Positions 2,250 through 63,810 of a stretch of DNA of 64,000 bases are shown here, piece after piece. The position numbers and the translations under genes are program-made. The stretch is from Actinomycetota bacterium (lineage in GTDB: Bacteria; Actinomycetota; UBA4738; JBJMLN01). The stretch is taken from assembly GCA_045805285.1 (NCBI GenBank), contig JBJMLN010000135.1, positions 5,656 through 69,655 on the forward strand. Reading direction: 5' to 3'. The notes beneath the pieces were generated by a model, which worked only from the letters and a program-made list of their open reading frames with translations, ran no database searches and was not told where the DNA came from. Every line of letters starts with the position of its first letter. Within the stretch, counting starts at the first letter, position 1.

Positions 2250-3509
2250 ATGGCGCACTCCGCACCGCCCGAGACCGAGCAGCCGGGCGCCGAAGGACTC
2301 CTCTCCGTCGCGCAGGCGCGAGAGCGTGTCCTGCAACGGATCCAACCGCTCGCGCCGATCGCGCTGCCGCTGCAGGAAACTTTCGGCTGCACGCTCGCGG
2401 AGGACATGTTCGCGGAGGGAGACCTTCCGCCGTTCTCCTCCTCCGCGATGGACGGATTCGCGGTGCGCTCGAGCGACGTCGCGGACGCGGGTTCCGGTGG
2501 GGTGGACCTCCGCGTCGTCGGGCGCGCGTTGATCGGCCAGCGGCCGGAAGGAACGGTCGGACGCGGCGAGGCATTCCGCATCGCCACCGGCGCGCCGATC
2601 CCCGCGGGTGCCGACGCGATCGTGCCGGTCGAGAACACGGTCCCGGGCGAGGACGCCGTTCGGGTCCTCGAGTCGGTTCCGCCAGGACGGCACATCCGCC
2701 CGGTGGGAGAGGACGTCAAGGAGGGTTCCGTCCTCGTCCGCGCGGGTCGCAAGCTCGGTGCGCCGGAGATGGGGCTGCTCGCGTCGGCCGGCCACTCCCA
2801 GGTGTTGGCGAACCCGCGCCCGCGCGTGATCGTGCTCTCCACCGGCGACGAGCTGGTGGAGCCTGGCCGGGAGCCGCGCTACGGCCAGATCCCCGACTCG
2901 AACGCCTACACGTTGTTCGGAGCGCTCCGCGAAGCAGGAGCCGTTCCGTACCTCGCCGGCATCGTGCGTGACGACGTCGACCAGCTGCGGGACACGATCT
3001 TCAACCACCTCGTGCAGGCGGACGCCTTCATCTCCTCCGGGGGCGTATCGATGGGGGACCGCGACGTCGTGAAGGCCGCGTTCTTCCGGCGTGGAGATCT
3101 CGATTTCTTCCGCGTCGCGATGCAGCCCGGCATGCCGCAGGCCTTCGGGCTGATTGAGGGGAAGCCGTACTGGGGACTGCCGGGGAACCCGGTCTCCGTG
3201 TTCGCGTCGTTCGAGGTGTTCATCCGTCCCGCGCTCATGAAGATGATGAACCGCCGTGAGCTCTTCCGGCCGGAGATCACCGCGAAGCTCTCGGCCGACA
3301 TCAGCGGGCCGCGCGGAAAGACGCAGTTCGCGCGGGTGCTCGTGCGACGCACGCCGCAGGGAAGGGTGGCCGAGCCGACCGGTGGGAGCGGCTCCAACCT
3401 GATCTCCACGATCGCCAGGGCGAACGGGCTCGCGATCGTGCCGCCCGGTGTCGAGACGCTCCGCGCGGGCGCCGACTGCCGCGTGATGCTCTTCCGCCCG
3501 CCCGAATGA
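2250..3509 (+). CDS. moeA: Molybdopterin molybdotransferase MoeA.
   Basis: The 420-aa tail of track ORF 1734..3509 matches MoeA, including GGVSMGDRD and the PGNPVS C-terminal domain. The ATG is at 2250. Confidence 0.85.
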   Translation: MAHSAPPETEQPGAEGLLSVAQARERVLQRIQPLAPIALPLQETFGCTLAEDMFAEGDLPPFSSSAMDGFAVRSSDVADAGSGGVDLRVVGRALIGQRPEGTVGRGEAFRIATGAPIPAGADAIVPVENTVPGEDAVRVLESVPPGRHIRPVGEDVKEGSVLVRAGRKLGAPEMGLLASAGHSQVLANPRPRVIVLSTGDELVEPGREPRYGQIPDSNAYTLFGALREAGAVPYLAGIVRDDVDQLRDTIFNHLVQADAFISSGGVSMGDRDVVKAAFFRRGDLDFFRVAMQPGMPQAFGLIEGKPYWGLPGNPVSVFASFEVFIRPALMKMMNRRELFRPEITAKLSADISGPRGKTQFARVLVRRTPQGRVAEPTGGSGSNLISTIARANGLAIVPPGVETLRAGADCRVMLFRPPE

Positions 3510-3985
3510 CCGTTCGCGGCGCGCCGGACCCCGCACAGGAGCAGCCGGCAAGGATCGTCGAGGTCGGCGGCAAGGAGGTCACCGACCGGCTCGCCGTCGC
3601 GGAATGCACGCTCTACACGACGCCCGCGGCGGTCGCGCACCTCCTCGAGGGCACGGAGAAGGGAAAGCCGATCGAGGCGGCTCGCATCGCGGGCATCCTC
3701 GGCGTGAAGCGGACGCCCGACCTCCTTCCGTTCTGCCATCCGATTGCCGTGACGGGCGCCGAGCTCGCGATCGAGCCCGACACCGCCGCGGGACGGATCG
3801 TCGTACGTGCGACCGTCCGAGCCCGAGACCGCACGGGGGTCGAGATGGAGGCCCTCACGGGCGCCGCGGTCGCGGCCCTGTCCCTCTACGACACCGCCAA
3901 ACCGTTCGACCGGTCGGCCTCGATCGGGGATCTCCGCCTCCGGGAGAAGCGAGGCGGCAAGAGCGGCGCCTACAACGCGCCGTGA
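3506..3985 (+). CDS. moaC: Cyclic pyranopterin monophosphate synthase accessory protein MoaC.
   Basis: The 159-aa product shows the MoaC fold signature (KGKPIEAARIAGILGVKRT, ALTGAAVAALSLYD). The start overlaps the moeA stop in an ATGA arrangement. Confidence 0.85.
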   Translation: MTVRGAPDPAQEQPARIVEVGGKEVTDRLAVAECTLYTTPAAVAHLLEGTEKGKPIEAARIAGILGVKRTPDLLPFCHPIAVTGAELAIEPDTAAGRIVVRATVRARDRTGVEMEALTGAAVAALSLYDTAKPFDRSASIGDLRLREKRGGKSGAYNAP

Positions 3986-5449: not shown

Positions 5450-5523
5450 GGGGGTGTAGCTCAGCCCGGTAGAGCGCTGCCCTCGCACGGCAGAAGTCAG
5501 GGGTTCAAATCCCCTCACCTCCA
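5450..5523 (+). tRNA. tRNA-Ala, anticodon CGC.
   Basis: Manual fold: acceptor GGGGGTG/CACCTCC with a G3:U70 wobble (the alanine identity element). D arm GCTC-AGCCCGGTA-GAGC. Anticodon stem CTGCC/GGCAG with loop CTCGCAC. T arm AGGGG-TTCAAAT-CCCCT. Discriminator A. CCA is not encoded. Confidence 0.85.
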
Positions 5524-6960: not shown

Positions 6961-7063
6961 TTCCCTACCTCCTGCTCGAACGGTGAGGTCATTTTCATGA
7001 CGCGGTCGTCCCGGTGTCTGTGTTGGCCGTCACGAGCCCGGTGTGCTCTTCGTCACGCCGTGG

Positions 7064-7079
7064 ATGTGACGTACGTCAC
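7064..7079. promoter_or_regulatory. CRP/GlxR-type site TGTGAcgtacgTCACc (TGTGA-N6-TCACA, 9/10 match) containing the perfect 14-bp palindrome GTGACGTACGTCAC. It sits in the divergent region between the 40-aa ORF and the sulfite-oxidase-like gene.
   Basis: Seen directly. Flanked by further GTCAC half-sites at ~7030 and ~7052. Confidence 0.4.
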
Positions 7080-7157
7080 CCCGGAACGTCCCCAGCGGGC
7101 GATCCCTCGCGGCCACGGTTGAGGCTCGCCCGCGGTCTGGCGCATCATCCTCGAAGG

Positions 7158-8237
7158 ATGGACCGGCCGGCCGACGACATCTCGAGGGACGAGCTCCAGC
7201 TTGCCGCGCGCAACGCGGGCATGCCGCAGGAGGCGCTGGCCTACGACCTGACGCCGGTCGGCCTGCATTACCTCCTGATCCACTACGACGTCCCCGAGGT
7301 CGACGTCGACGCGTGGCGTCTCCGGGTCGACGGGGGAGTCGGCCGCTCGCTCGAGCTTTCCTTGGACGATCTGCGGAACCGCGAACGGCGAACGGTCGCG
7401 GTCACGATGGAGTGCGCGGGGAACGGCCGCACCCTCTACGACCCACGCGCGATCAGCCAGCCGTGGCTCCTCGACGCGGTCGGAACCGCGGAGTGGACGG
7501 GAACTCCGCTCGTTCCGCTGCTGGAGGAGGCCGGCGTCGACGAGAACGCGACCGAGGTGGTGTTCACGGGCCTCGACCGCGGCATCGAAGGCGGAGAGGT
7601 CCAGACCTACGCGCGGAGTCTCCCGATCGAGGAAGTCCGTCGCGACGAGCTCCTGCTCGCCGACGAGATGAACGGCGCTCCGCTCTTGCCGCAGCACGGC
7701 GCTCCGCTCCGCCTGCTCGTCCCCGGTTGGTACGGGATGGCGTCGGTCAAATGGCTCGCCCGCATCACGCCGGTGCTCGAGCCGTTCGACGGCTACCAGA
7801 ACCGCGCGGGCTACCGGTTCCGGCGTTCCGAAGAGGAGGCCGGTGAATCCGTCACGCGGATCGAGCCACGTTCGCTCATGGTCCCTCCCGGGATCCCGGA
7901 GTTCATGACGCGCGCGCGTCATCTCGCGCCCGGAACGGTCACGCTCCGCGGCCGCGCGTGGTCGGGGTGGGGACACATCGAACGCGTCGAGATAAGTACC
8001 GACGGCGAGACGACGTGGAGTGACGCCCGGGTCGACCGGCGAGGAACCTCCGACCGCGCCTGGGTCGGGTGGTCCTTCGAGTGGAACGCCGAGGAGGGGG
8101 AGCACGTGCTGTGCTCCCGTGCGACGGATGCGACCGGCCGCACCCAGCCGGATCAAGCGAACTGGAACGTCGGCGGCTACGCGAACAACGCTGTCCAACG
8201 CATGCCGGTGACCGTCTCGGCGGCGGTCGACGGCTAG
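7158..8237 (+). CDS. Sulfite-oxidase-family molybdopterin oxidoreductase (Mo-co binding domain plus dimerisation domain).
   Basis: TMECAGNGRT carries the Mo-ligand Cys loop. LLADEMNGAPLLPQHGAPLRLLVPGWYGMASVKWL is the sulfite oxidase / YedY-type signature. ATG at 7158 preceded by GAAGGA. Confidence 0.8.
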   Translation: MDRPADDISRDELQLAARNAGMPQEALAYDLTPVGLHYLLIHYDVPEVDVDAWRLRVDGGVGRSLELSLDDLRNRERRTVAVTMECAGNGRTLYDPRAISQPWLLDAVGTAEWTGTPLVPLLEEAGVDENATEVVFTGLDRGIEGGEVQTYARSLPIEEVRRDELLLADEMNGAPLLPQHGAPLRLLVPGWYGMASVKWLARITPVLEPFDGYQNRAGYRFRRSEEEAGESVTRIEPRSLMVPPGIPEFMTRARHLAPGTVTLRGRAWSGWGHIERVEISTDGETTWSDARVDRRGTSDRAWVGWSFEWNAEEGEHVLCSRATDATGRTQPDQANWNVGGYANNAVQRMPVTVSAAVDG

Positions 8238-8294: not shown

Positions 8295-9149
8295 ATGACG
8301 CGCTTTCTGGTCCGCACCGTTTTCTCGGTCGCCGTGTCGATCTGCCTGGTCGTCCCCGCGGGCTGGAGCGTGACCGCTGCGGAGCGCTGCACGATCGACG
8401 GAACGTCCGGAGCGGACGTCCTTGTCGGGACCGACGGACGTGACGTCCTGTGCGGCCACGGCGGAGCGGATCTCCTCAAGGCTCGCGCGGGCGACGACCT
8501 TCTCCTCGGCGCCGACGGCCGAGACCGCTTGAACGGCGGCAATGGAAACGACCGCCTCCGGGGCGGCGCCGGAGCGGACAGCGCGGTCGGCGGAAAGGGC
8601 TCCGACCGCGTGGACGGTGGTGCCGGAGCGGACATATGTCTGTCCGCGTTCGACCACACCGTCGGCAACGATGTCATCGTCGGCGGTCCCGGTCGCGACT
8701 CGTACGTTGCGGACCACGGCGACGTCGCGAACGGAGCGAACGCCAGCCGGCCGTGCACGCTGCGAGCCAAGCTCGTCGGCGATCGCAAGGGTCCCTCCGG
8801 GTCGCTCGACGTGAATGGCAAGTCCTCCCCGGGTGCTGCCGAGAGTTGGTGCTGGCGCGAAAGCAGTCGCTCTTCCTACTGCGCCGACACCGGGATCGAC
8901 TTCTCGAACCTTCCGGCGTTCGACGTCCCGCGGGACGCCGCACTCTTCGTCCATGGCAACGCCGATTCGGCCGGAGCGGAGCTGTGGCGACCCACCGACG
9001 GCGTTTTCCCCAGCCACCGGATCGCGACGGTCGATCTGCGAGGCGGCTCGGATGCGCTGCGGGTCCCACCCGGCGCGTATCTCCTCCGCGTCAGCGGTCG
9101 TTGGAGCCGTGGCACCGCGGCGTACTGGTTCGAGCTCGACGTCGCCTGA
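8295..9149 (+). CDS. Secreted protein with an N-terminal signal peptide and six or more hemolysin-type (RTX) calcium-binding nonapeptide repeats (GGxGxDxL).
   Basis: MTRFLVRTVFSVAVSICLVVPAGWSVTAAE is a signal peptide. Repeats: GTDGRDVLCGHGGADLLKARAGDDLLLGADGRDRLNGGNGNDRLRGGAGADSAVGGKGSDRVDGGAGAD. Confidence 0.7.
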   Translation: MTRFLVRTVFSVAVSICLVVPAGWSVTAAERCTIDGTSGADVLVGTDGRDVLCGHGGADLLKARAGDDLLLGADGRDRLNGGNGNDRLRGGAGADSAVGGKGSDRVDGGAGADICLSAFDHTVGNDVIVGGPGRDSYVADHGDVANGANASRPCTLRAKLVGDRKGPSGSLDVNGKSSPGAAESWCWRESSRSSYCADTGIDFSNLPAFDVPRDAALFVHGNADSAGAELWRPTDGVFPSHRIATVDLRGGSDALRVPPGAYLLRVSGRWSRGTAAYWFELDVA

Positions 9150-9156
9150 GACGCTC

Positions 9157-9996
9157 GTGCGGTTCGGGCTGAGCGTCCAGAACTTCGGAACCTACGGCGA
9201 CCCAGCTCTCCTGGCGGATCTCGCTCGTGACGCCGAGGCGGCGGGCTGGGACGGCTTCTTCGTGTGGGATCACCTCCTCCGCGGAGACGCGCCCGTCGCG
9301 GACCCGTGGATCTCTCTCGCCGCCATCGCCGTCGCGACGGAACGCGTGAGGATCGGCCCGATGGTGACGCCGCTTCCTCGCCGCCGGCCGTGGCAGGTCG
9401 CGCGCCAGGCGGTGACGCTCGATCACCTCTCGGACGGAAGGGTGACCCTCGGCGTCGGGCTCGGTTCGTCTCCGCAGATGGAGTTCGCTCCGTTCGGCGA
9501 GGCGACGCAGAACGCGGAACGTGCCGCGGTCGCCGACGAGGCACTTGAGATCATCACGTGCCTGTGGACCGGAGACCCGGTCGACGCCCGTGGCCGATTC
9601 ATGCTCAGAGGAGCGAGGTCACTGCCGCTCCCGGTTCAGCGGCCGCGCATCCCGATCTGGGTCGCGGGCAACTGGCCGAACCGTGGTCCGCTCCGTCGCG
9701 CCGCGCGCTACGACGGCGTGTTCCCGCAGCGCATCGCGACGGATCCGGACGATTGGATGCTCTCTCCGGACGACGTCCGTGCCGTCCTGGCAGTCGTCGG
9801 TGAGTACCGAGAACTGGATGAACCGTTCGACGTCGCGGTCGCGCTTTCCGACGAGGGCGACGCCTCTCGGCGGCCGGATCTGATCGCCGAATACGCCGGT
9901 GCCGGCGTCACCTGGTGGATGGAGGGCGTGCTCGAAGACGCGGGAGACCTCGCCGAGATGCGAGCGCTGATCCGCCGCGGTCCGGTGGCCGCCTGA
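9157..9996 (+). CDS. LLM-class (luciferase-like) F420-dependent oxidoreductase.
   Basis: VRFGLSVQNFG, LGVGLGSSPQMEFAPFG and the IWVAGNWP C-terminal motif match TIGR03619-type LLM proteins. GTG start. Confidence 0.75.
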   Translation: MRFGLSVQNFGTYGDPALLADLARDAEAAGWDGFFVWDHLLRGDAPVADPWISLAAIAVATERVRIGPMVTPLPRRRPWQVARQAVTLDHLSDGRVTLGVGLGSSPQMEFAPFGEATQNAERAAVADEALEIITCLWTGDPVDARGRFMLRGARSLPLPVQRPRIPIWVAGNWPNRGPLRRAARYDGVFPQRIATDPDDWMLSPDDVRAVLAVVGEYRELDEPFDVAVALSDEGDASRRPDLIAEYAGAGVTWWMEGVLEDAGDLAEMRALIRRGPVAA

Positions 9997-10005
9997 CGCG
10001 GACGA

Positions 10006-10404
10006 TCAATACTGCCCGTACGTTCGGTCGACCGTGAACTCGTAGATCAGGCGCTCCTCGCGGACCATCGCCGCGAGGTACTCCTCCACGTCGTCGGGCT
10101 CCCCGGCCAGCGCGCGGTAGAGCTCGAGGTTCTGCTCGGGCGCGTCGGGGCCGTCCAGGATCCGGACGTGCGACTCGATGCCCATCCACGCCTGCCAACG
10201 TCTCGGATCGAACACGAAGAGCGTCGCGCGCGGATCGCGACGGAGGTTCCGGGTGCGCACGCGGTTCCGCGTCCCGGAGCTCCAGACGACGTCACCCATC
10301 AGCCCGATGCCGATGCGGGCGACGTGCGGCGTTCCGTCGGCCTTGATCGTCGCGACGGCGGCGCTGTGATTGTGTTCGAGGAAGGCGCAGACCTTGTCGT
10401 CCAC
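10006..10404 (-). CDS. PPOX-class F420-dependent / pyridoxamine-5'-phosphate-oxidase-family protein.
   Basis: HSAAVATIKADGTPHVARIGIGLMGDVVWSSG and the C-terminal YEFTVDR are typical of the split-barrel PPOX family. Confidence 0.7.
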   Translation of the reverse strand: MDDKVCAFLEHNHSAAVATIKADGTPHVARIGIGLMGDVVWSSGTRNRVRTRNLRRDPRATLFVFDPRRWQAWMGIESHVRILDGPDAPEQNLELYRALAGEPDDVEEYLAAMVREERLIYEFTVDRTYGQY

Positions 10405-10772: not shown

Positions 10773-10965
10773 GTTCTCCTCCTGAGGGGATGGTTGTTCA
10801 CGGGGTGTCGTTCCGCTTCGATGATAAACGACTGGGACGCAAAACGAACGCGAAGTGAATGCGCCGCGCGTTGGCTCTTCAGTCAGCTCTGCATACCGAG
10901 CGACGACATTCCGACCATCGCTACACTGCAGTCGTTCGTTCGCGACCGCATCTGTAGGAGGATCG

Positions 10966-12237
10966 ATGACGACCACGGGAGTTTCCGCGCAGCGAGATGC
11001 GGGGCCTCGAACGTGGTGGACGCGGCCGGGTCTCGAGATCGTCGACGGCCGCCTGCGCATCGCGGGCCGGGACGCGGAGGCCCTTGCGCGGCAACACGGA
11101 ACGCCGCTCTACGTCTACGAGCTCGGCATCATCGGCTCCAACGTGCGCGCGCTGCAGTCGGCGTTCGGGCGGATCGGCGTGACGGGGCGCGTGCGATACG
11201 CGCTCAAGGCGAACCGGGAACCGGAAATCCTGCGTTTCCTCCGCGGCTTAGCCTCCCCGGGAACGCCCGAGAGCGTCGGCATCGACGCCTGCTCTCCGGG
11301 AGAGGTTCTCTATGCGATCGAGCACGGTTGGAAGCCACACGAGATCTCCTTCACCGGCACGAACGTCTCCGAGCGCGATCTCGACGTCCTGCTTTCACAG
11401 CCGATCCTCATCAACGTCGATCTGCTGAGCCAGCTCGATCGCATCGGACGTCGCGCGCCGGGAGGCGCCGTCGGATTGCGATTGAACCCGCGGGCCGGCG
11501 CCGGCTGGAGTGGAGAGGGAGCCACCCTCTACAGCGGCACGAAGCCCGGGAAGTTCGGGATCTACGACGAGAACCTCGACGACGCCCTCGAGATCGCCCG
11601 ACGCCACGATCTCTCGATCGTCCGTGCACACGTCCACGTCGGCGACGGGTTCCTCACACGCGGGCTGCCCAAGTTCGAGGGCGCGATCGAGCGGCTCGCG
11701 GCGATGGTCCGTCGCCTGGTCGACGCCGGCTGTCCGATCGAGGAGATCAACACCGGCGGCGGGCTCGGGGTCCCGCTCCAGGACGGAGACGAGCCGCTGG
11801 ACGTCGACGCCTACGCGGAGGTCCTCGCGCGATACCTCGGGGACTTCGGCGTGACGATCGCGTGTGAGCCCGGCGACTTCATCGTCAAGCAGAGCGGGAC
11901 GCTCCTCGCCGAGATCGTGACGGTGGAGGACCGCCTCGGAACGACCTTCGTCGGCCTCGACGTCGGTTGGAACGTCGTGAGCGACCACTTCGTGTACAAG
12001 ATGCCGATCGAGCAGGTCCTCTGCCGCGCCGCCGACGCGCCGAGGACCGAGCGGCTGACGATGTCCGGCCACATCAACGAGGGGAACGACCTCTTCGCGG
12101 AGGACTATCCGTTCCCCCCGGTGAAGGAGGGCGATGTCGTTGCGATGATGAGCGTGGGCGGTTACAACCAGGCGATGGCGATGCCGCACTGTCTCCGGCC
12201 CGTTCCGCCCGCGATCGTTCTCCGCGATGCCGAATAG
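10966..12237 (+). CDS. PLP-dependent fold-III decarboxylase (diaminopimelate / ornithine / carboxynorspermidine decarboxylase family).
   Basis: Motifs YALKAN (Lys-PLP), HVHVGDG, EINTGGGLGVP and CEPGDFIV. ATG at 10966 preceded by GTAGGAGGA. Confidence 0.8.
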   Translation: MTTTGVSAQRDAGPRTWWTRPGLEIVDGRLRIAGRDAEALARQHGTPLYVYELGIIGSNVRALQSAFGRIGVTGRVRYALKANREPEILRFLRGLASPGTPESVGIDACSPGEVLYAIEHGWKPHEISFTGTNVSERDLDVLLSQPILINVDLLSQLDRIGRRAPGGAVGLRLNPRAGAGWSGEGATLYSGTKPGKFGIYDENLDDALEIARRHDLSIVRAHVHVGDGFLTRGLPKFEGAIERLAAMVRRLVDAGCPIEEINTGGGLGVPLQDGDEPLDVDAYAEVLARYLGDFGVTIACEPGDFIVKQSGTLLAEIVTVEDRLGTTFVGLDVGWNVVSDHFVYKMPIEQVLCRAADAPRTERLTMSGHINEGNDLFAEDYPFPPVKEGDVVAMMSVGGYNQAMAMPHCLRPVPPAIVLRDAE

Positions 12238-15491: not shown

Positions 15492-16922
15492 CTATGTACC
15501 CGGTATGAACACCTTCAGGAGCTGACCGCCCTCTCCGACAGCGGTGTTCGGGCGAAGGCTCGGACCGGGCTGCGGAACGTTCGTGTCGTGCGCCTGCACG
15601 TCCATCAGCCACCAGCCCTTGCCGAAGAAGCTCGACGCGTCGATGACTCCGCTCGACTCCCAGTCTCCGCGGCCCTCGCGCCGGATCACGCTCTCGGTCG
15701 GTTGAGTGCGGGCAACCGTTCGGAGCGTTCCGTCGCCAAGGTCGTAGACGAGCACGCGGTCGAATCCCGACTTCGGGTAGTTCCGATCCTCCTGGATGAC
15801 GAGCGCGTGTTTGGAGACGGCGAGGTTGTCCGGGTTGAACATGTCGTCTCCGTGGCTCCCGTCGAGCACCACCTGCAGCGACGCGCGCGTCGGATGCTCC
15901 GGATCGAGCTGCACCCGGTAGATGCGACCGCGGAACGTCTCCCGGTCCGCCGCGCCGGTGTCGGAGAAGTACACCGTGCCGGGATGCATGGGGTCTGCCT
16001 CCGCGTCCTCGATCCGGACGAAGTCGAACGCGCCCTTGCGCTGCGACGCTGCCTCGAGCGAATCGATGCTCGTGTTGCGGCCCTGGGAGATGCGGACGAG
16101 CTTGCCGTCGAGCGTCTGTCCCTTGGAGATGTGGTCGGGGGAGGGGTTGGCGTCCGTGTGACCGGTCGGAACGAACACGCGGAGCACGCCCTGCCCGCGG
16201 ATCGCTCCCTTGAACGTCGGCGCCGTGTACGCGTAGAGCTGCGAGTGACCGGCGCTGCCGTCCTCGGAGAGGAAGAAGGTCGCTTTCGAGAGGCCCTTGA
16301 CCGGCACGACGTTCTCGTGCAGCAGCATCCCGAACTGCGGCGTTTCCATCCAACGGCCGGTCTCCGCATTGAGCGCGATTGACATGCCGCCGTGACCCTG
16401 CTTGCACTCCTCCCCGGTGAAGTACCACGGCTGTCCTCCGAGGATCCGGAGCGTGCTCGAGCAGAAGCACGTGAAGCTCTCCGTTCCGTCGACGGGATAG
16501 CTCCCGCGGAGCACCGAGCCGTCGTTGTTGAGGGTGAGATGCGAGATCCGCGAGTTCGACGGATCGCCGTCGACCTGCTCGAGCTCGTGGTTCATAAACA
16601 ACTGGATCCGTGCCTTCGAGCTCCGATACGCGCCGAGGCCGTCGGGGATCCCGGTCATCTCATATCCGCCGACGACGTCGCCGGTCGTCAGTAGCGGCTC
16701 GACCCGGACGCCGTTCACGAGCGGAACGACGTACGGGCGACGCGAGGTGAGGAAACCGGCCGGCCTGCCGCCCGGGACGTCGACCGATCCTGCGAACGCT
16801 CCGGACGCTGTCAACAGGCGATCGCGAGCGCGAGTGTGATGGAACGGCGCATATGAAGCTCCCCCTTCTGCATCTCGAGCATCCGTCGAGCCCGAACGCA
16901 CAGCATCGGGGATGCGACGCAT
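15492..16922 (-). CDS. PhoX-like / DUF839-family secreted protein (predicted phosphatase beta-propeller), possibly exported by the Tat pathway.
   Basis: 476-aa track ORF. Motifs GIPDGLGAY, FVRIEDAEADP and IYRVQLDP are characteristic of COG3211/PhoX. An N-terminal RDRLLTASGAFAGS segment resembles a Tat signal. The family call is from recall only. Confidence 0.5.
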   Translation of the reverse strand: MRRIPDAVRSGSTDARDAEGGASYAPFHHTRARDRLLTASGAFAGSVDVPGGRPAGFLTSRRPYVVPLVNGVRVEPLLTTGDVVGGYEMTGIPDGLGAYRSSKARIQLFMNHELEQVDGDPSNSRISHLTLNNDGSVLRGSYPVDGTESFTCFCSSTLRILGGQPWYFTGEECKQGHGGMSIALNAETGRWMETPQFGMLLHENVVPVKGLSKATFFLSEDGSAGHSQLYAYTAPTFKGAIRGQGVLRVFVPTGHTDANPSPDHISKGQTLDGKLVRISQGRNTSIDSLEAASQRKGAFDFVRIEDAEADPMHPGTVYFSDTGAADRETFRGRIYRVQLDPEHPTRASLQVVLDGSHGDDMFNPDNLAVSKHALVIQEDRNYPKSGFDRVLVYDLGDGTLRTVARTQPTESVIRREGRGDWESSGVIDASSFFGKGWWLMDVQAHDTNVPQPGPSLRPNTAVGEGGQLLKVFIPGT

Positions 16923-23629: not shown

Positions 23630-23648
23630 CTAGTCTGGCCGAGACTAG
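23630..23648 (-). terminator. Hairpin CTAGTCT ggccg AGACTAG overlapping the mocA stop codon.
   Basis: Perfect 7-bp inverted repeat. Confidence 0.35.
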
Positions 23649-24202
23649 ATCGCGTCAGGAGGCACATCGAGGTCCGGAGGCGCGTCGCGGTCGATCTTCA
23701 CGTCGTCGACCTCGTGAGGGCCGAAAAGAGCACGCGCGCCCGAGTCTCCCGTCAGCGCGAGCGCATCGGGCCAGATCTCTCTCGAGAGGAGCGCCGGACC
23801 GGGCGCGTTCCGGTACCGGAGTCGAACGATCGGTGCGCGGGTCTGGCTGAACCGCTCGACGAGCGCGCGGATCTCCTCCGGATCGACCCCGGGCTGGTCG
23901 GCGAGGAGGACGACAACCCCTTCGCTCGATGGATCGAGTGCTCGGAGGCCAGTCGCGAGCGACGTCGATTGGCCCTGCGCGAAGCGTTCGTTCACCACGA
24001 TGCGCGCGTTCGGGGGGAGCGTGATCGCCGCCTGAACCCGTTCAGCGTCGTGGCCGAGGACGACGACGATCTCGTCGAGTTCCGCCGCCGCAGCTGCGTC
24101 GATCGCGTGTTGGACGAGCGGCTTCCCTTCGAACTCGAAGAGCTGCTTCGTGGAACCGAAGCGTGACGCCGTCCCCGCCGCGAGGACGATCGCGGAGATC
24201 AA
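23645..24202 (-). CDS. mocA: MobA-like nucleotidyltransferase (molybdenum cofactor cytidylyltransferase MocA-like).
   Basis: LISAIVLAAGTASRFGSTKQL matches the GT-A NTP-transferase motif. TTG start with GAAGGA at -5. Forms a TTGA overlap with coxG. Confidence 0.7.
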   Translation of the reverse strand: MISAIVLAAGTASRFGSTKQLFEFEGKPLVQHAIDAAAAAELDEIVVVLGHDAERVQAAITLPPNARIVVNERFAQGQSTSLATGLRALDPSSEGVVVLLADQPGVDPEEIRALVERFSQTRAPIVRLRYRNAPGPALLSREIWPDALALTGDSGARALFGPHEVDDVKIDRDAPPDLDVPPDAI

Positions 24203-24816
24203 CGATCCTTCGCGTCGATCCCGAACAGCTTTCGGAACCAGCGCACGATCGACGACACCAGCGCCGAGAGGCCGAGCCGGAGGCCACCGACGGGAGCGGC
24301 CGCCTGTGGCGGAGCCGGTGCCAGCTCGGGCGACTCCTCCGTCCCCTCCGGAACCGCGGGTGTTGCCGCCTCCGCGGCCATGTTCGTCCGAAGGCAGCTG
24401 GCGAACTGCTGGGTCAGCTTTGCCGAGACGTCGGGCAGCAATCCTCGGGAGAGTTGCGCGACCGCTCCGGTCAGCGTGACGTCGGCCTGCATGCGGACCT
24501 TCGTCGAGTCTCCGTCCCGTTCCAACGTCGATGTGACCGTCGCGTTGGCGGCTCCCTTTCCGCGCTGCTCCATCCCAGACGCATGGAGGACCACACGGTG
24601 CGTCGCGTCGACGCGATCCTGCATCGTCACGGTCCCCGCGAATGCCAGCGCCACGGGCCCGAACTTCATCGTCACTCGGCCTTTCCAGTTGCGGTCGTCG
24701 ATCGTCTCCGTCAGCTGTGCGCCCGGCATGCACGGTGCGACCTTGTCGACGTCGAGGAGATACCGCCAGACGTCGTCGATCGGCGCGGGAACCTCGAACT
24801 CGTTCGTGATCTCCAT
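24199..24816 (-). CDS. coxG: CoxG-family SRPBCC protein (carbon monoxide dehydrogenase subunit G-like).
   Basis: MEITNEFEVPAPIDDVWRYLLDVDKVAPCMPGA is the classic CoxG N-terminus. Confidence 0.8.
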   Translation of the reverse strand: MEITNEFEVPAPIDDVWRYLLDVDKVAPCMPGAQLTETIDDRNWKGRVTMKFGPVALAFAGTVTMQDRVDATHRVVLHASGMEQRGKGAANATVTSTLERDGDSTKVRMQADVTLTGAVAQLSRGLLPDVSAKLTQQFASCLRTNMAAEAATPAVPEGTEESPELAPAPPQAAAPVGGLRLGLSALVSSIVRWFRKLFGIDAKDR

Positions 24817-24818
24817 GG

Positions 24819-25823
24819 TCAGCCTTCCCCGTGGATGGGCCCGCGGCGATCGCGGAGCGAACCTCCGCTGCGGCCCCGATCGACGGCGATGATCTCCGCG
24901 GTGATGGAGCTCGCGATCTCCCGTGGACCCTCCGCGCCGACGTCGAGCCCGGCGGGAGCGAACACGCGATCGAGGCCAGGATGCCCCTCGACCTCGACGA
25001 GGAGACGCTCTGTTCGTCCACGCGGTCCGAGCATGCCGATGTAGGGAACGGACGAGTCGAGCAGCGTGCGAAGTCGTTCGCCATCCGTCAGATAGGCGTG
25101 ATTCATCACGACCGCGAACGTCCGGTCGTCGAGAAGAACATCTGGAACCGGTTCCGACCGCGAGACGCACGCGACGTCCCATCCGAGCGCGCGACCGGCA
25201 TCGGCGAGCGCGGGGGCGTCGGATCGATCTCCGAAGAGCGCGAGCCGGATCGGCCGGCGGAGGAGCTCCACGAACGCCCGCGCACCGGTCGCGAACGAAA
25301 CGATCCGCGGCGCGCTCTGAGAAAGCGCCCGCTCCGCTGTGTCCGCGGCGTCCTCCGGCATCCAGCCGACCTGTGATGCGACGCCGTCCGCAGACAGCGC
25401 TAGGCGCGAGCCGGCGGAGTCGCCGTCCAGGAGCGTCACCAGCGCATGGTCGGAACGCTCACGAGCGACGGCCCGGACGTGATGAGCGAACGTGCGCGCG
25501 CTCGAGGACGGTTCCACGAACACCTCGATGACGCCCTGGCAGCCCATGCCGTAGCCGAGCTCCACCTCGTCGTCTGCGGTGAGATCGAACTCGCGGAGCA
25601 TCGGCATTCCACTCTCGGCGACGGCTCGAGCGTCGTCGACGAGCTCCGCCTCCAGGCAGCCGGGGCTGAGCGAGCCGATCGGATCTCCGCCAACGGGGAG
25701 CATCGCCCGCGCGCCGGGACGCCGGTACGAAGATCCACGGACGCCGACCACGGTCGCCAGCGCGAACGGTGCATCCCGTTCCACGAGAAGCTCGATTGCG
25801 GCGGCGATGTCGGGCGTTGCCAC
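24819..25823 (-). CDS. xdhC: XdhC/CoxI-family molybdoenzyme maturation factor.
   Basis: FALATVVGVRGSSYRRPGARM matches the XdhC_CoxI N-terminal domain, with a C-terminal Rossmann-like domain. GTG start selected by homology. Confidence 0.75.
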   Translation of the reverse strand: MATPDIAAAIELLVERDAPFALATVVGVRGSSYRRPGARAMLPVGGDPIGSLSPGCLEAELVDDARAVAESGMPMLREFDLTADDEVELGYGMGCQGVIEVFVEPSSSARTFAHHVRAVARERSDHALVTLLDGDSAGSRLALSADGVASQVGWMPEDAADTAERALSQSAPRIVSFATGARAFVELLRRPIRLALFGDRSDAPALADAGRALGWDVACVSRSEPVPDVLLDDRTFAVVMNHAYLTDGERLRTLLDSSVPYIGMLGPRGRTERLLVEVEGHPGLDRVFAPAGLDVGAEGPREIASSITAEIIAVDRGRSGGSLRDRRGPIHGEG

Positions 25824-25965
25824 GTTCGGATAGTAGCTATCTCCACCGCCCGCGACCGCCGCACGCTCGCGCTTTGAACGTGCTCGAACCTCCGTGTTAG
25901 AAAGGAGATTCCAGCGCCCGGGTCCCTTTTCCCGGCGCGCGCGTCCCCGTGGAAGGGGTGCTGCA

Positions 25966-26382
25966 ATGGCCTCGCTCAGCACGAAGGACATCAGCCTCGA
26001 TCAGGCGAACGCCGCAGTCGAGGCCGCAACGAAGAAGGCCGAGGAGATCGGCACGACGATGGACATCGCCATCGTCGACGCCGGCGCCAACCTCAAGGCG
26101 TTCGCGCGGATGGACGGCGCCTGGCTCGGCAGCATCGACATCGCGATCAAGAAGGCCAGCACCGCACGGTGGTTCGATATGAACACCGGCGACATCGGCG
26201 GCCTCTCCCAGCCGGGCGGCGCGCTGTACAACATCGAGCACTCGAATGAGGGCCTGATCACGTTCCCCGGCGGCATCCCGATCAAGGACGGCGACACGGT
26301 GATCGGCGCGATCGGCGTCTCGGGCTCGACCGTGGAGAACGACCACACCGTCGCGGCGGCCGGCGCAGCAGCCGTCCAGTAG
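25966..26382 (+). CDS. GlcG / HbpS-like heme-binding protein (DUF336).
   Basis: [43 protein letters not shown] and [20 protein letters not shown]. Confidence 0.75.
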
Positions 26383-26428
26383 GTCCACCCACCCACGCAT
26401 TCGAACACACTCGGGAGGGAGGACGGAC

Positions 26429-27619
26429 ATGCCTGACAACCGCGGCGTTGCCTACATGGGCCCCGGCAAGGTGGAGGTCCAGGACATCGCCTATCCGGAG
26501 CTCGCGCTCGGCAACCGCAAGACCGAGCACGGCGCGATCCTCAAGATCGTGGCGACGAACATCTGCGGGAGCGACCAGCACATGGTGCGCGGCCGCACGA
26601 CCGCTCCGGAGGGACTGATCCTCGGCCACGAGATCACCGGCGAGGTGGTCGAGACCGGCCGGGACGTGGAGTTCGTCAACGTCGGCGACCTCGTATCTGT
26701 TCCGTTCAACATCGCGTGTGGCCGGTGCCGTAACTGCAAGGAGGGCAAGACCGGCGTCTGCCTGAACGTGAACACCTCCCGCCCGGGAGCGGCCTACGGC
26801 TACGTCGACATGGGCGGCTGGATCGGCGGACAGGCGGAGTACGTCATGACGCCGTACGCCGACTGGAACCTGTTGGTGTTCCCGGACCGCGACCAGGCGA
26901 TGGAGAAGATCAAGGATCTGGCGCTGCTCTCGGACATCTTTCCGACGGGCTATCACGGAGCGGTCTCCGCGGGCGTGGGTCCGGGTTCGGTCGTCTACGT
27001 CGCGGGAGCGGGACCCGTCGGTCTCGCGTGCGCCACGGCGTGCCAGCTCCTCGGCGCCGCGGTCGTGATCGTCGGTGACATGATCGACGAGCGCCTTCGT
27101 CAAGCGGCCTCGTTCGGTTGCGAGACGATCGACCTGAAGACCGACGCCTCGCTCGCCGACCAGATCGAGCAGATCACCGGGGTTCCGGAGGTCGACCAGG
27201 CCGTCGACTGCGTGGGGTTCGAGGCGAAGGGCCACGGAGCCGACAGCGGCCACGAGCAGCCGGCGACCGTCCTCAACGCGCTGATGGAGATCACGCGCGC
27301 GGGCGGCGCGATCGGGATCCCGGGCCTGTACGTGACGGGCGACCCGGGCGGCGTCGACGAGAACGCGAAGATCGGCCAGCTCGGGATCCGGATCGGTCTC
27401 GGATGGGCGAAGTCGCACACGTTCACGACCGGTCAGTGCCCGGTGATGCGGTACCACCGGCAGCTGATGCAGGCGATCCTGAACGACAAGACCCACCCGG
27501 CGCGGAACGTCAACGTGGAGACGATCCCGCTCGATCGCGCGCCGGAGGGCTACCGCGACTTCGACCAGGGCGCCGCGAAGAAGTACGTGATCGACCCGCA
27601 CGGGGTCATCGCGAACTGA
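26429..27619 (+). CDS. fdhA: Glutathione-independent formaldehyde dehydrogenase (zinc-dependent).
   Basis: Near-colinear match to Pseudomonas putida FdhA motifs: NRGVAYMGPGKVEVQ, ICGSDQHMVRGRTTA, VPFNIACGRCRNCKE, GYVDMGGWIGGQAEYV. Confidence 0.9.
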   Translation: MPDNRGVAYMGPGKVEVQDIAYPELALGNRKTEHGAILKIVATNICGSDQHMVRGRTTAPEGLILGHEITGEVVETGRDVEFVNVGDLVSVPFNIACGRCRNCKEGKTGVCLNVNTSRPGAAYGYVDMGGWIGGQAEYVMTPYADWNLLVFPDRDQAMEKIKDLALLSDIFPTGYHGAVSAGVGPGSVVYVAGAGPVGLACATACQLLGAAVVIVGDMIDERLRQAASFGCETIDLKTDASLADQIEQITGVPEVDQAVDCVGFEAKGHGADSGHEQPATVLNALMEITRAGGAIGIPGLYVTGDPGGVDENAKIGQLGIRIGLGWAKSHTFTTGQCPVMRYHRQLMQAILNDKTHPARNVNVETIPLDRAPEGYRDFDQGAAKKYVIDPHGVIAN

Positions 27620-27620
27620 G

Positions 27621-28478
27621 TTAGGCCTGCGAGGAGGCGTTCGCGCGCGCGGACGCCTCCTCCAGCGCGCGTCGCACGAGGATCTCGGCCAGCGCTCTTC
27701 GGTACTCCGCGCTGCCCGAGATGTCGCTCGGCGGGCTGGTTCCCTCCGCCGCCGTGGTGGCCGCGGTTCCGGCGTCCGCGCCGTCCGAGAGCGCCTGTTC
27801 GACTCGTGTCGCGCGGATCGGCCGGTCGCCCATGTTCGTGAGGGCGACCCGGGCGGTTCCGTCAGCGTGCGTGAGGGCGGCGACGCCGACCAGCGCCCAG
27901 TCCGCAGCGCGGCGGTGGAACTTGATCGCGCTCCAACCCGTTCCCGGCCGGAGCTTCGGGACGCGGACCTCCGTCAGCATCTCCGTGGGGGAGAGTTCCG
28001 TCTCGAAGAGTCCGGTGAAGAACGTCGTCCCCGGCTGCGTCCGCGTGCTTCCGTCCACGCCGCGGATCCTCAGCTCCGCGTCGAGCGCGACGACGGCCGC
28101 GGGGAGATCCGACGCCGGGTCCGCATGCGAGAGCGAGCCGCCGATCGTTCCGCGATGCCGGACCTGGGGGTCGCCGATGTCCGCCGCGACGGCTTGCAGG
28201 AGCGGACACCAGCGTTCGAGAAGGTCGCTTCGCTCGAGGTCCGCGTGACGCGTGAGCGCGCCGATCGCGATCACGTCGTCCTCCTCGCGGATGTAGCGGA
28301 GCTCGTCGAGACGCCCGATGTCGACGAGAAGAGCAGGCTGCGCAAGCCGGAGCTTCATCAGCGGCAGAAGCGAGTGACCTCCCGCGAGGAGCTTTGCCTC
28401 GTCTCCTCGGTCGGCCAGGATGCCGAGCGCGTCGTCGATCGTCGCCGCGCGCTCGTACTCGAACGCCGCCGGGATCAC
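27621..28478 (-). CDS. coxM: FAD-binding molybdopterin dehydrogenase subunit (CoxM/XdhB family).
   Basis: [18 protein letters not shown] start region, [16 protein letters not shown], and the CO dehydrogenase flavoprotein C-terminal domain. GTGA overlap with coxS. Confidence 0.8.
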
Positions 28479-28954
28479 GTCGAACGCTCCGCGCCGGCGG
28501 CGTCGAGCACTGCGCGGACGATGTTGTGGTAGCCCGTGCAGCGGCAGAGGTTTCCCTCGAGACCGCGCCGGACGTCCTCCTCGGTGGGCGAAGGGTTGTC
28601 CTTCAGGAGGGCGACCGAGGCCATCACCATGCCGGGCGTGCAGAACCCGCATTGAAGCGCGTGGTTGTTCCGGAAGGCCGCCTGAACGGGGTGCATCTCT
28701 TCGAGCTCCGCGCCGGCTGCGAGGCCTTCGATCGTCGTGATCTCCGTCCCGTCCGCTTGGACGGCGAGCACGGTGCAAGACTTCACCGACTCTCCGTCGA
28801 TGAGGACCGTGCACGCACCGCAGGACGTCGTGTCGCACCCGACGTTCGTTCCCGTGAGAGCGAGCGTCTCCCGCAGGAAGGAGACGAGGAGCGTGCGCGG
28901 CTCCACCTCCGCCTCGCGGACCGAATCGTTGACGGTGACGCGGACCGACCGCAC
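28475..28954 (-). CDS. coxS: (2Fe-2S)-binding small subunit (CoxS/XdhC family).
   Basis: [11 protein letters not shown] and [11 protein letters not shown] cysteine clusters. Confidence 0.9.
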
Positions 28955-29062
28955 TCAGGCGCGAGGAGGAGGCATCGACAGACGATAGGGTTCGCCGCGC
29001 CGGAGGGTCAACCTGGCCCGCGCCTCAGTCCGGGCGTGGAGGCGCAGCCGGAGGAGGCGCAC

Positions 29063-29575
29063 TCACCGGCCGATCTCGTCGCTCGCTGCCGGAGTGATCC
29101 GCAGGCTTGGATCGATGCGGCCGTCCACTGCGAGCTGGTTCGGAACGACCACGGTCCTCGCCGCGATGTCGCCGACCCGCTGCCGCAGCGGTGATCGCCA
29201 CATGATGATGGCGCCCACCAGGTAGAAGAAGAGTCCATCGACCGCTCGAAGGACGTTCCGGACCACGGAGGTAAAGAAGTCCATGGGCGTTCCGTCGACC
29301 CTCACGACCCGGACGCCGAGCGCGAACTTGCCGAGCGACGCTCCATATCGACTCTCGAAGACACTCATGTATGCGAGCCACACGAGGGCCGCGAGACCGC
29401 CCGGCACTCCGGTGAGGTTCAGGTGCCAGGATTCGGACGTGCCGTAGCGAGCGTGTTCGACCCCGACGGCGCCCGCGCCGCTGATCTTCAGGACGATCGC
29501 GACGGCCGCTACGAGCAGGACGGAGTCGATCAGGATCGCGACCGCCCTTCGCCCAACTCCGACGTACGTCGTCAC
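29063..29575 (-). CDS. RDD-family membrane protein.
   Basis: RRAVAILIDSVLLVAAVAIV and the FESRYGASLGKFALGVRVV signature. Confidence 0.7.
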   Translation of the reverse strand: MTTYVGVGRRAVAILIDSVLLVAAVAIVLKISGAGAVGVEHARYGTSESWHLNLTGVPGGLAALVWLAYMSVFESRYGASLGKFALGVRVVRVDGTPMDFFTSVVRNVLRAVDGLFFYLVGAIIMWRSPLRQRVGDIAARTVVVPNQLAVDGRIDPSLRITPAASDEIGR

Positions 29576-30207
29576 GCGACGCTGAACGTCGTGACGATCT
29601 GCTCACAGCCTGAATCGAGCGCGTCGTTAGACTCGCCGGTGCTCTGACAGTTCACGAAGTACTCCGTCTTTCCGTTGAACGCCAGCACGATCTTGGTCTT
29701 GACCGAAACGGCCTGCGGGTTGACCGCCGTGCCGCTGTAGCCGAGCGCCGGGAATCCCGCCATCGTGAGCTTCGTCGGCCCCGACTGCATCGAGCCGCCG
29801 GCCTGCGTGAAGAGGTTCTGGATCTGGGTCGTCAGCTCGCTCGTGTGCTGGTCGATGTTGCTCGGCGTGATCGACAGGTTGATCCCGTACTGGGACACGA
29901 GCACGAAGTTCGCGTTGTCGATGCCGAAGGCCTCCGACCAGGCCTGACTCCCCTGAGACGCGCTCGAGCCCGAGGTCTGGATGGGTTTCCAGTCCCCCGG
30001 GTACTGGAACTTCACACCGTGCCCGTCGAAGGTCTGGCTCCCGCTCGCCGATGACGACGGGTTGTTCGTCGGAAGGGTGGCGACGGCGGCCGGCTTCGAG
30101 CTGCTCGTCGAACTGCTGTCGCCGTTGCTGCAGGCGGTAAAGAGCGCCGCCGCGGCAAGGATGACGCACAAAAAGGAACGTTTCGCGAACAGCGTGGACC
30201 TCCTCAT
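29572..30207 (-). CDS. Lipoprotein of unknown function.
   Basis: MRRSTLFAKRSFLCVILAAAALFTACSNG contains a lipobox. The mature region is Ser-rich. Confidence 0.6.
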   Translation of the reverse strand: MRRSTLFAKRSFLCVILAAAALFTACSNGDSSSTSSSKPAAVATLPTNNPSSSASGSQTFDGHGVKFQYPGDWKPIQTSGSSASQGSQAWSEAFGIDNANFVLVSQYGINLSITPSNIDQHTSELTTQIQNLFTQAGGSMQSGPTKLTMAGFPALGYSGTAVNPQAVSVKTKIVLAFNGKTEYFVNCQSTGESNDALDSGCEQIVTTFSVA

Positions 30208-30217
30208 GGCTCGAGTG

Positions 30218-30568
30218 TCAGACAACGTGTCCGGGTGCGCCATCGGGCGTTGTTAGGGGGAGGCCGTCTCGCTCCCAGGCCTCGAGGCCTCCCTCGAGGT
30301 TATGCGCGTCGTAGCCCCGGGCCTGGAGCATGATCGCTGCAAGCTCGCTGCGGTTGCCGACGCGGCAGACGACGACGACGGGGCGTTCTCGGTCGAGATC
30401 GTCGTCGCCCGCGCCTCCCATCACGTCGTTCAACGGCAGGTGCACCGAACCGTCGATGCGGCCGGCATCCCATTCGTACGGCTCGCGAACGTCCACGATC
30501 TGGACGTCGGAGAGGTGGGTCGAGAGACCTTTCGGCTGGCTGAGCTCGTCGATCATCGGTTTCGGCAT
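30218..30568 (-). CDS. Rhodanese-domain sulfurtransferase (single domain).
   Basis: DVREPYEWDAGRIDGSVHLP and the active-site loop CRVGNRS. Confidence 0.75.
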   Translation of the reverse strand: MPKPMIDELSQPKGLSTHLSDVQIVDVREPYEWDAGRIDGSVHLPLNDVMGGAGDDDLDRERPVVVVCRVGNRSELAAIMLQARGYDAHNLEGGLEAWERDGLPLTTPDGAPGHVV

Positions 30569-30606
30569 CCTAGCAGCAGGTTTGCGGCCGCCGGATCCGC
30601 GGTTTG

Positions 30607-31128
30607 TCACGGGCCCGCAGCCTCGAGCGCCTCCGCGAAGACGTCGTGGGCACGCCGGTCGAACAGCACGAAACGCACCTCGTCCAGCGACGACGGCGCG
30701 TCGCGAACGGCATCTAGCGCCACGGGGGCGGCGAGCTCCAGCGGATAGCCGTAGATCCCCGTGGAGATCGCCGGGAACGCGACGGTCCGCGCGCCGAGTT
30801 CCTCCGCAACGCGGAGCGATTCCCGGTGGCAGCTCGCGAGCTTGACCGCGTCGTCCTCGGAGCCGGAGTACACCGGGCCGACCGTGTGGATCACCCACCG
30901 CGCGGGAAGATCGCCCGCGGTCGTCGCGACGGCCTGTCCCGTCGGAAGACCTTGCGGAAAGCGCTCCGCCCGAACACGCTTGCACTCCTGCAGGATGGCC
31001 GGGCCGCCGGCTCGGTGGATCGCGCCGTCGACGCCTCCGCCGCCCATCAGGGAGCCGTTCGCGGCGTTCACGATCGCGTCGACGTCCTGCGTCGTGATGT
31101 CTCCGACGACGACGGCGATGCGGGCCAC
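30607..31128 (-). CDS. Macro-domain protein (O-acetyl-ADP-ribose deacetylase, YmdB/Af1521-like).
   Basis: [39 protein letters not shown] is the canonical macrodomain motif. Confidence 0.85.
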
Positions 31129-63751: not shown

Positions 63752-63810
63752 CGGCAAGACGGGGGCCTTTGGAGCCTCAGATGGAGGTTCGATCCCTCCC
63801 CCCGGAGCCA
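63737..63810 (+). tRNA. tRNA-Gln, anticodon TTG, with encoded CCA.
   Basis: Manual fold: acceptor TCCGGGG/CCCCGGA. Anticodon stem GGGGC/GCCTC with loop CTTTGGA. T arm GGAGG-TTCGATC-CCTCC. Discriminator G followed by CCA. Confidence 0.85.

Follow-up and report, generated by a model that had tools for sequence, protein, structure and literature searches.

The locus described here lies between positions 23,645 and 28,954 of a 64,000-nucleotide (nt) stretch of contig JBJMLN010000135.1, from a metagenome-assembled genome (MAG) of an Actinomycetota bacterium (GCA_045805285.1), and the whole of this stretch is referred to as the window. It harbors genes for the small (coxS) and medium (coxM) subunits of a molybdoenzyme of the xanthine oxidoreductase (XOR) family, together with the accessory genes xdhC, coxG and mocA, but is not accompanied by a gene for the molybdopterin-binding large subunit (coxL), so that the complete set of large, medium and small subunits (L, M and S) typical of the family is not present. 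The same layout is found in related assemblies and the remaining genes are under purifying selection, which points to a module that probably still works and would serve a large subunit whose gene lies at another place in the genome.

Gene content of the locus

The window has a G+C content of about 68% and mechanically called open reading frames (ORFs) overrun the true genes within it. Genes were named by Pfam and NCBIfam matches, while their starts were set by start-codon mapping. The ORFs at 23645–25084, 24199–25182, 24819–25991 and 27621–28838 are high-GC read-through and not genes. The RDD gene is the one that Pfam places at 29063–29575, and not the ORF at 29025–29606, which is in another frame. 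The locus and the genes upstream of coxS comprise the following features.

23645–24202, minus strand: mocA, molybdenum cofactor cytidylyltransferase-like protein of 185 amino acids (aa); TTG start overlapping the coxG stop; Pfam NTP_transf_3, E 2e-36
24199–24816, minus strand: coxG, SRPBCC protein whose C-terminal tail is hydrophobic; Pfam COXG, E 9e-18
24819–25823, minus strand: xdhC, 334 aa, Pfam XdhC_CoxI and XdhC_C; chaperone for molybdenum cofactor (Moco) insertion into an XOR-family large subunit
25824–25965, no strand: intergenic region from which xdhC and glcG diverge, with a length of 142 nt given the glcG start at 25966; no Rfam family matched
25966–26382, plus strand: glcG, HbpS-like (DUF336) protein of 138 aa; ORF open from 25894, the ATG at 25966 being the most likely start; Pfam HbpS-like, E 2e-38
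26429–27619, plus strand: fdhA, zinc-dependent alcohol dehydrogenase (ADH), glutathione-independent formaldehyde dehydrogenase; NCBIfam TIGR02819 at 735.7 bits, above the cutoff of 636.95
27621–28478, minus strand: coxM, medium subunit binding flavin adenine dinucleotide (FAD), 285 aa, GTG start; Pfam FAD_binding_5 and CO_deh_flav_C, E 6e-50
28475–28954, minus strand: coxS, 159-aa small subunit for two [2Fe-2S] clusters; Pfam Fer2 and Fer2_2, E 6e-33
29063–29575, minus strand: RDD-family membrane protein gene, Pfam RDD, E 1e-22; upstream of coxS with a gap of 108 nt
29572–30243, minus strand: PsbP_2-like gene (Pfam), upstream of the RDD gene and co-directional with coxS
within 30218–30985, minus strand: rhodanese gene (Pfam), upstream and co-directional with coxS
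30607–31128, minus strand: macro domain gene (Pfam), upstream and co-directional with coxS

The CoxS, CoxM, FdhA and CoxG proteins of the window are identical to MFL5738267.1, MFL5738266.1, MFL5738265.1 and MFL5738262.1 (NCBI), respectively, and the source of MFL5738262.1 to MFL5738267.1 is an “Actinomycetota bacterium” MAG, in which they are encoded on a contig of 77,078 bp. As in small subunits of the CoxS type, the Fer2 and Fer2_2 domains are combined with all eight cluster cysteines (C40, C45, C48, C60, C102, C105, C137 and C139), while CoxM harbors both FAD motifs of its subunit type, 32-AGGHS-36 and 111-TIGG-114, in the AGG(x)S and TIGG definitions of PMC8305194. The coxS stop and the coxM start overlap in the tetranucleotide GTGA. 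Downstream of coxM and in the same direction lie xdhC, coxG and mocA, behind the two opposite-strand genes fdhA and glcG. The stop codons of the convergent fdhA and coxM are 1 nt apart (27617–27623), and a terminator would have no space between these two genes.

The maturation set for a molybdopterin (MPT) cytosine dinucleotide (MCD) cofactor is present, with the XdhC chaperone and the MocA-type cytidylyltransferase both intact and conserved. The top NCBIfam match of MocA is TIGR03310 (MocA/YgfJ, E 3e-39), its 135 bits falling below the 186-bit equivalog cutoff, and its specificity for cytidine triphosphate is presumed. CoxG is presumed to be a quinone-binding membrane coupler by analogy with its counterpart in Mycobacterium smegmatis, which acts as a quinone coupler and hands electrons to menaquinone (bioRxiv 10.1101/2024.01.09.574806).

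The search for a large subunit was negative throughout the window. The CoxL proteins of two relatives gave a best tblastn E of 0.42, and a profile of 70 CoxL sequences (29–100% identical to the reference), run by hmmsearch --max with all filters off against the six frames read from stop to stop, gave a best E of 6.6 at 0.4 bits. Pfam scans of about 60 window ORFs revealed no Ald_Xan_dh_C or MoCoBD domain, and a second coxS or coxM was not found in the window either. There is consequently no coxL gene, nor a relic of one, anywhere in the 64 kb, and the locus is free of a large subunit for at least 23 kb on its upstream side and 35 kb on its downstream side. Rfam identified no Moco riboswitch or other RNA family near the locus. 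A sulfite-oxidase-family molybdoenzyme encoded at 7014–8237 was considered as the partner of CoxS and CoxM and rejected, its cofactor type being mismatched and its gene lying 20 kb away. Enzymes of this family carry the Mo-MPT cofactor and do so without XdhC or MocA, and we know of no S/M partners for them.

A preliminary description of this DNA had placed xdhC, coxG, mocA, coxS and coxM on the minus strand, split by glcG and fdhA, with coxM directly against the convergent fdhA, an RDD membrane protein upstream of coxS and no large subunit in the window. Each of these points stands, every named gene being confirmed by Pfam, and the intact cofactor-binding residues of CoxS and CoxM, for which a check had been proposed, are present as listed above.

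Loss of coxL among related loci

A protein search placed the window in a sparse lineage of 22 clusters at 71–100% CoxM identity. The layout lacking coxL was also found in five other independent assemblies, whose CoxM is 71–82% identical to that of the window: L081 (NCBI GCA_045805245.1), the JGI contigs with P0005 and P0022 (JGI 3300041965), L085 and L086, such handles being used here where loci have to be told apart. The shared order consists of the macro domain, rhodanese, PsbP2-like and RDD genes, coxS and coxM, the opposite-strand ADH and HbpS genes, and then xdhC, coxG and mocA. It is seen whole in the P0005 and P0022 contigs and up to xdhC in L085, with L081 and L086 ending at the ADH gene, and its macro–rhodanese–PsbP2–RDD portion is kept in all five. 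In L085 and in the contigs of P0005 and P0022, glcG is found where it stands in the window (product of 138–139 aa), and the latter two contigs also retain mocA, its product in that of P0005 being likewise 185 aa long. As the order without coxL is common to all these contigs, the loss of coxL predates their divergence. A metagenome scan with XdhC added one close relative (L082, on a 1.5-kb contig) and one distant match.

Two neighbours are less constant. FdhA is 95–96% identical to its counterparts in L081 and L085, while in the P0022 contig, the most distant member of the lineage, its place is taken by a pair of hypothetical genes without Pfam matches (products of 179 and 226 aa; locus 10866–12082) and the HbpS-like gene stays, so that fdhA does not belong to the locus invariably. 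The RDD gene overlaps the start of coxS in the five related contigs, as against the 108-nt gap of the window, and is not adjacent to coxS in relatives of the coxS-coxL-coxM (S-L-M) type. It is also fast-evolving, with 51% aa identity to L081 versus 76–96% for the flanking genes.

The ancestral order was established by a CoxM scan of one genome per species, which returned 80 loci, nearly all from uncultured Actinomycetota, Acidimicrobiia and related MAGs, with a top match only 65% identical. Their layouts were scored by mapping the window proteins and the CoxL of one relative, and 68 loci were scorable. Of these, 51 have the order S-L-M and seven the order coxL-coxS-coxM (L-S-M), while one has coxS-coxM with coxL about 5 kb upstream (L024, where it is the only large subunit), and in nine coxS is directly followed by coxM with no coxL in the available flanks. 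A neighbour-joining tree of CoxS and CoxM combined places the window as sister to a clade in which every locus but L016 is S-L-M, and the closest relatives outside the lineage of the window in the protein search (67% CoxM identity) are S-L-M as well. The S and M subunits of the window therefore belong phylogenetically to the S-L-M group without their genes having its order. The large subunit of the relative L004 carries the sequence AYRGAGR, a form-II-type loop, and scores below the NCBIfam cutoffs for carbon monoxide (CO) dehydrogenase and glyceraldehyde dehydrogenase.

Since both the sister clade of the window and its nearest outgroup are S-L-M, the missing gene formerly stood between coxS and coxM, and this comparison of gene orders indicates that coxL was lost from there and not from beyond coxM. 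The preliminary description had implied a gene missing after coxM, at the position of fdhA, which does not agree with the S-L-M order of the sister clade and of 51 of the 68 loci, nor with the xdhC-coxG-mocA genes of the closest relatives, which are divergent from coxS. Set against that divergent arrangement in the sister clade, the position of these accessory genes in the window indicates that they moved relative to coxS. Both fdhA and glcG are ordinary, conserved neighbours rather than replacements of coxL, with no demonstrated link to the molybdoenzyme. A single inversion from coxS to glcG was considered as the origin of the layout and would explain the orientation of xdhC-coxG-mocA, yet it stays speculative because no relative has fdhA and glcG downstream of coxM. 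The junction in the window has the form of the two deletion junctions described below, with the CoxS tail shortened after LDAAG and its stop overlapping the coxM start, and is too diverged for a breakpoint to be read.

Loss of coxL is not restricted to this lineage. Loci with coxS and coxM alone are scattered over the CoxS and CoxM tree, and at five positions the upstream flank extends for 7 kb or more: the lineage of the window, L016, L020, the clade of L021, L035 and L054, in which the pair sits beside secDF-relA, and L043. Three further loci are on short contigs (L025, L037 and L051), where a large subunit could be nearby. Following coxM in L016, L020 and L054, a divergent large subunit was considered and rejected, the ORFs encoding a methyltransferase, a beta-eliminating lyase, MscS, a CoxD-like AAA protein, CoxE, SecDF and RelA. 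Pairs of coxS and coxM without coxL thus arose on several occasions among the relatives.

Two of these loci are close enough to siblings for their junctions to be compared, and both fit clean deletion at short repeats. L016 and L012 are 87–92% identical at the nucleotide level, and exactly the coxL ORF is missing from L016 (8300–8400 in L016 versus 7570–7680 and 9950–10030 in L012), with breakpoints in a G-run after the coxS stop and a G-run before the coxM start, both resembling ribosome-binding sites. Between L025 and L032 (88–90% nucleotide identity; 630–720 versus 7550–7660 and 9950–10030), the junction fits a fusion of the coxS end to the last few coxL codons at an ACAAG-like microhomology, and L025 keeps the overlapping stop and start with coxM. 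In these sibling species coxS and coxM are intact after the deletion, with a pairwise ratio of nonsynonymous to synonymous substitution rates (dN/dS, ω) of about 0.05–0.13. For L016, branch-specific ω values were derived by hand from pairwise values; they amount to about 0.10 (coxS) and 0.11 (coxM) and resemble those of the S-L-M sisters.

Relatives also harbor the reverse situation, in which a single S/M pair is accompanied by two large subunits. The order coxL2-coxS-coxL1-coxM is present in five loci, L019 (4925–10819), L022 (4633–10819), L027 (2161–10816), L032 (2279–10819) and L042 (4796–10825). L2 is about 40% identical to L1, as the large subunit of L-S-M loci is 38–41% identical to L1, and L-S-M loci look like the two-subunit arrangement without L1. 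This suggests, from gene order and identity, that one S/M electron-transfer pair can serve two catalytic subunits. In addition, many S-L-M relatives have a second, divergent M-S-L cluster from the same enzyme family directly beside the first, as in L006, L011, L013, L015, L017, L023 and L084 (CoxM identity about 41–45%), sometimes joined to the first via xdhC.

Selection and proposed role of the remaining genes

The ω values were estimated by the Nei–Gojobori method within the lineage lacking coxL, comparing the window with L081 and L085 and, for xdhC and coxG, also with L082. The dS was 0.3–0.8 for every gene except the RDD gene. The following ω values were obtained.

coxS: 0.13–0.16
coxM: 0.20–0.21
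xdhC: 0.20 against L082, 0.27 against L085
coxG: 0.17 against L082
glcG: 0.10
fdhA: 0.07–0.10 (against L081 and L085)
other flanking genes: 0.11–0.28
RDD gene: 0.3–0.5

The values for coxS, coxM, xdhC and coxG are comparable to those of neighbouring genes (0.07–0.28), and these four genes are under purifying selection after the loss of coxL. Conserved columns, defined as those at least 95% conserved among relatives containing the large subunit, are kept at 50 of 51 positions in CoxS and 41 of 43 in CoxM, the changes in CoxM being conservative only. In a relative-rate comparison, the distances of the combined window S and M to three outgroup sets were within or just beyond the range of the S-L-M sister clade, showing no clear acceleration.

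Taken together, we consider it likely, with a probability of about 0.7, that the locus is a working electron-transfer and maturation module that derives from an S-L-M operon by deletion of coxL and serves a large subunit encoded elsewhere. The preliminary description had listed a distant or shared large subunit among its explanations, and this one is favoured by the layout without coxL in six assemblies, by ω values of 0.13–0.27 and by the relatives with two large subunits per S/M pair, with L024 and pAO1 (see below) as precedents for separation. A different partner for the S/M pair, which that description also offered, would fit the same data. Furthermore, xdhC is under selection, mocA is retained and, to our knowledge, MocA and XdhC have no client besides an MCD-containing large subunit, for which reasons such a subunit would be needed.

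The mechanism can be outlined from what is typical of the enzyme family. Deletion of coxL from a form-II-like coxS-coxL-coxM operon would have left coxS and coxM translationally coupled through the GTGA overlap. MocA would convert Mo-MPT to the MCD cofactor, which XdhC would bind and insert into the large subunit. The gene of the latter would be at a distance of at least 23 kb or 35 kb, depending on the side, and its product possibly a paralogue without an S/M pair of its own. This distant subunit would pair with the CoxS and CoxM of the window to form an (LMS)2 enzyme, in which electrons would pass from molybdenum through the two [2Fe-2S] clusters of CoxS to the FAD of CoxM, with the membrane-tethered CoxG as a probable coupler delivering them to menaquinone or the quinone pool.

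Several points weigh against this interpretation. The large-subunit gene itself was not found in a search that covered the 64-kb window out of a 77-kb contig, and since MAGs are incomplete even a full scan could miss it. The CoxD- and CoxE-like AAA and vWA genes that occur near the S-L-M clusters of relatives were not seen among the scanned window ORFs. XdhC, moreover, is only 48% identical between the window and the sister clade, within which identity is about 78%, with a distance ratio of 2.3 versus 1.35–1.9 for the other four proteins and a length of 334 aa versus 377 aa in the S-L-M sister clade. This divergence fits a change of partner, and may faintly hint at adaptation to a different large subunit, yet it could reflect something else and the gene may be a non-orthologous copy.

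A broader form of the proposal, held here only tentatively and more doubtful than the module itself, is that CoxS and CoxM with CoxG, XdhC and MocA make up a stand-alone “socket” for interchangeable or distant large subunits. In this enzyme clade coxL would be gained and lost as a cassette, its repeated removal being by clean deletion between flanking short G-rich ribosome-binding sequences while selection on S/M continues. Were this so, substrate specificity would evolve by swaps of the large subunit onto a conserved electron-transfer module.

Among the alternatives, an improbable one is that CoxS and CoxM, perhaps with the RDD protein and CoxG, function independently of any large subunit, as a free-standing FAD/[2Fe-2S] oxidoreductase or with a partner from outside the XOR family. 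The translational coupling of the RDD gene to coxS in five related contigs would agree with this, as would the fact that several lineages have kept S-M pairs that lack a large subunit, such as those beside secDF-relA in L021, L035 and L054. However, the purifying selection on xdhC and the retention of mocA are sensible only with an MCD-dependent large subunit, and we know of no CoxS/CoxM-type pair that functions without one. The RDD gene, for its part, is fast-evolving, separated from coxS in the window and not beside it in S-L-M relatives. Solved structures show the small subunit lying between the large and medium subunits, the former helping to shield the clusters (PMC8305194).

Less probable still is a decaying relic, in which coxL would have been lost along with function and coxS, coxM, xdhC, coxG and mocA would be nonfunctional leftovers. 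The preliminary description had included such a remnant, with former neighbours replaced by fdhA and glcG. The absence of the catalytic subunit from 64 kb is in keeping with decay, as are the recurrence of S-M pairs among relatives, which would be expected if coxL is easily lost, and a G+C content at third codon positions (GC3) somewhat lower in xdhC-coxG-mocA than in neighbouring genes. Against this, the five genes are intact in six assemblies that diverged after the loss, selection on the retained genes shows no relaxation, with ω values that fall within the range of the neighbours, and the independently coxL-less L016 has a branch ω of about 0.1. The dN/dS results thus largely refute a relic, and together with the retained ligands and conserved columns and the lack of any clear rate acceleration they make a decaying remnant very unlikely. 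That the deletion is a misassembly or binning artefact, as might be suspected of a MAG, is highly improbable, the same junction of coxS stop and coxM start, a clean overlap, being present at 71–89% protein identity in NCBI and JGI assemblies that are independent and stem from different samples.

Surroundings, significance and comparison with known systems

The remaining window is ordinary chromosome, with metG, tatD, rsmA, rsmI, a polyamine-type ABC transporter, sugar genes, moaC and the sulfite-oxidase-family enzyme. The positions of the features named or matched by Rfam are as follows.

3506–3985, plus strand: moaC
5450–5523 and 63737–63807, plus strand: two tRNA genes, the only Rfam matches in the window
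7014–8237, plus strand: sulfite-oxidase-family molybdoenzyme, Oxidored_molyb and Mo-co_dimer

The P0022 contig encodes a homologue of the sulfite-oxidase-family enzyme some 5 kb past its mocA, and the gene at 7014–8237 is therefore regarded as a loosely conserved neighbour; it is followed by an RTX-repeat protein at 8295–9149. A 476-aa ORF on the minus strand at 15492–16922, whose coding signal is good (GC3 of 0.84), has no Pfam match at E 1e-4 and is flanked by genes for a metallo-beta-lactamase-fold protein and an ABC-transporter solute-binding protein.

What the locus represents is a known enzyme family in a variant arrangement, on its own a modest curiosity and not a new kind of system. 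The point of interest is that coxL is repeatedly and cleanly lost from S-L-M operons while the S/M and maturation genes stay under selection. Partial coverage of the literature returned no report of conserved orphan coxS-coxM loci, which is weak evidence for novelty. Annotation pipelines, and surveys of CO oxidation and of purine or aldehyde metabolism, usually count coxL and presume that L, M and S travel together. The present loci suggest that in the large “form II” clade, most of which is uncharacterised, subunits from separate loci can be combined. If so, enzyme numbers and partners inferred from MAGs would be affected, and the locus offers a tractable test of one S/M pair serving several catalytic subunits.

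With regards to substrate, the top NCBIfam matches of CoxM and CoxS are the beta and gamma subunits of archaeal glyceraldehyde dehydrogenase, a molybdenum aldehyde oxidoreductase (CoxM, NF041019, 281 bits; CoxS, NF041020, 241 bits). Unlike in that enzyme, both scores lie under the curated cutoffs (350 and 290, respectively), for which reason no substrate is assigned, and no NCBIfam cutoff is reached by either the large subunit of the relatives or the S and M subunits of the window.

Form I Mo-Cu CO dehydrogenase (coxMSL with coxDEFG), as in Oligotropha carboxidovorans and M. smegmatis, has the same three-subunit architecture and cofactors. It differs in that the window order S-M derives from S-L-M and not from M-S-L, in that the large subunit of the relatives reaches 653 bits against the TIGR02416 cutoff of 991, and in that no coxD, coxE or coxF (AAA/MoxR, VWA_CoxE) is among the scanned window ORFs. 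The AYxCSFR active-site loop that marks form I would lie in the large subunit, which is absent from the window.

A precedent for a large-subunit gene that is not contiguous with those of M and S is the ketone dehydrogenase KdhL/KdhMS of pAO1 in Paenarthrobacter nicotinovorans, an actinobacterial XOR-family enzyme, where pnh separates kdhL from kdhMS (PMC10494377). The FAD motifs of this enzyme are at the same positions as in CoxM, 32-AGGxS-36 and 111-TIGG-114 (PMC8305194). On pAO1, however, there is one intervening gene in a single catabolic cluster, while in the window at least 23 kb on the upstream side and 35 kb on the downstream side are devoid of a large subunit.

Compared with the form II (“putative”) CO dehydrogenase-like coxS-coxL-coxM operons, the window is without coxL, has its accessory trio downstream of coxM instead of divergent from coxS, and carries the RDD gene before coxS. 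It nevertheless shares with them the same trio of xdhC, coxG and mocA, and its CoxS and CoxM are 60–75% identical to those of the uncultured Actinomycetota S-L-M operons, whose large subunit carries AYRGAGR and to which they branch as sister.

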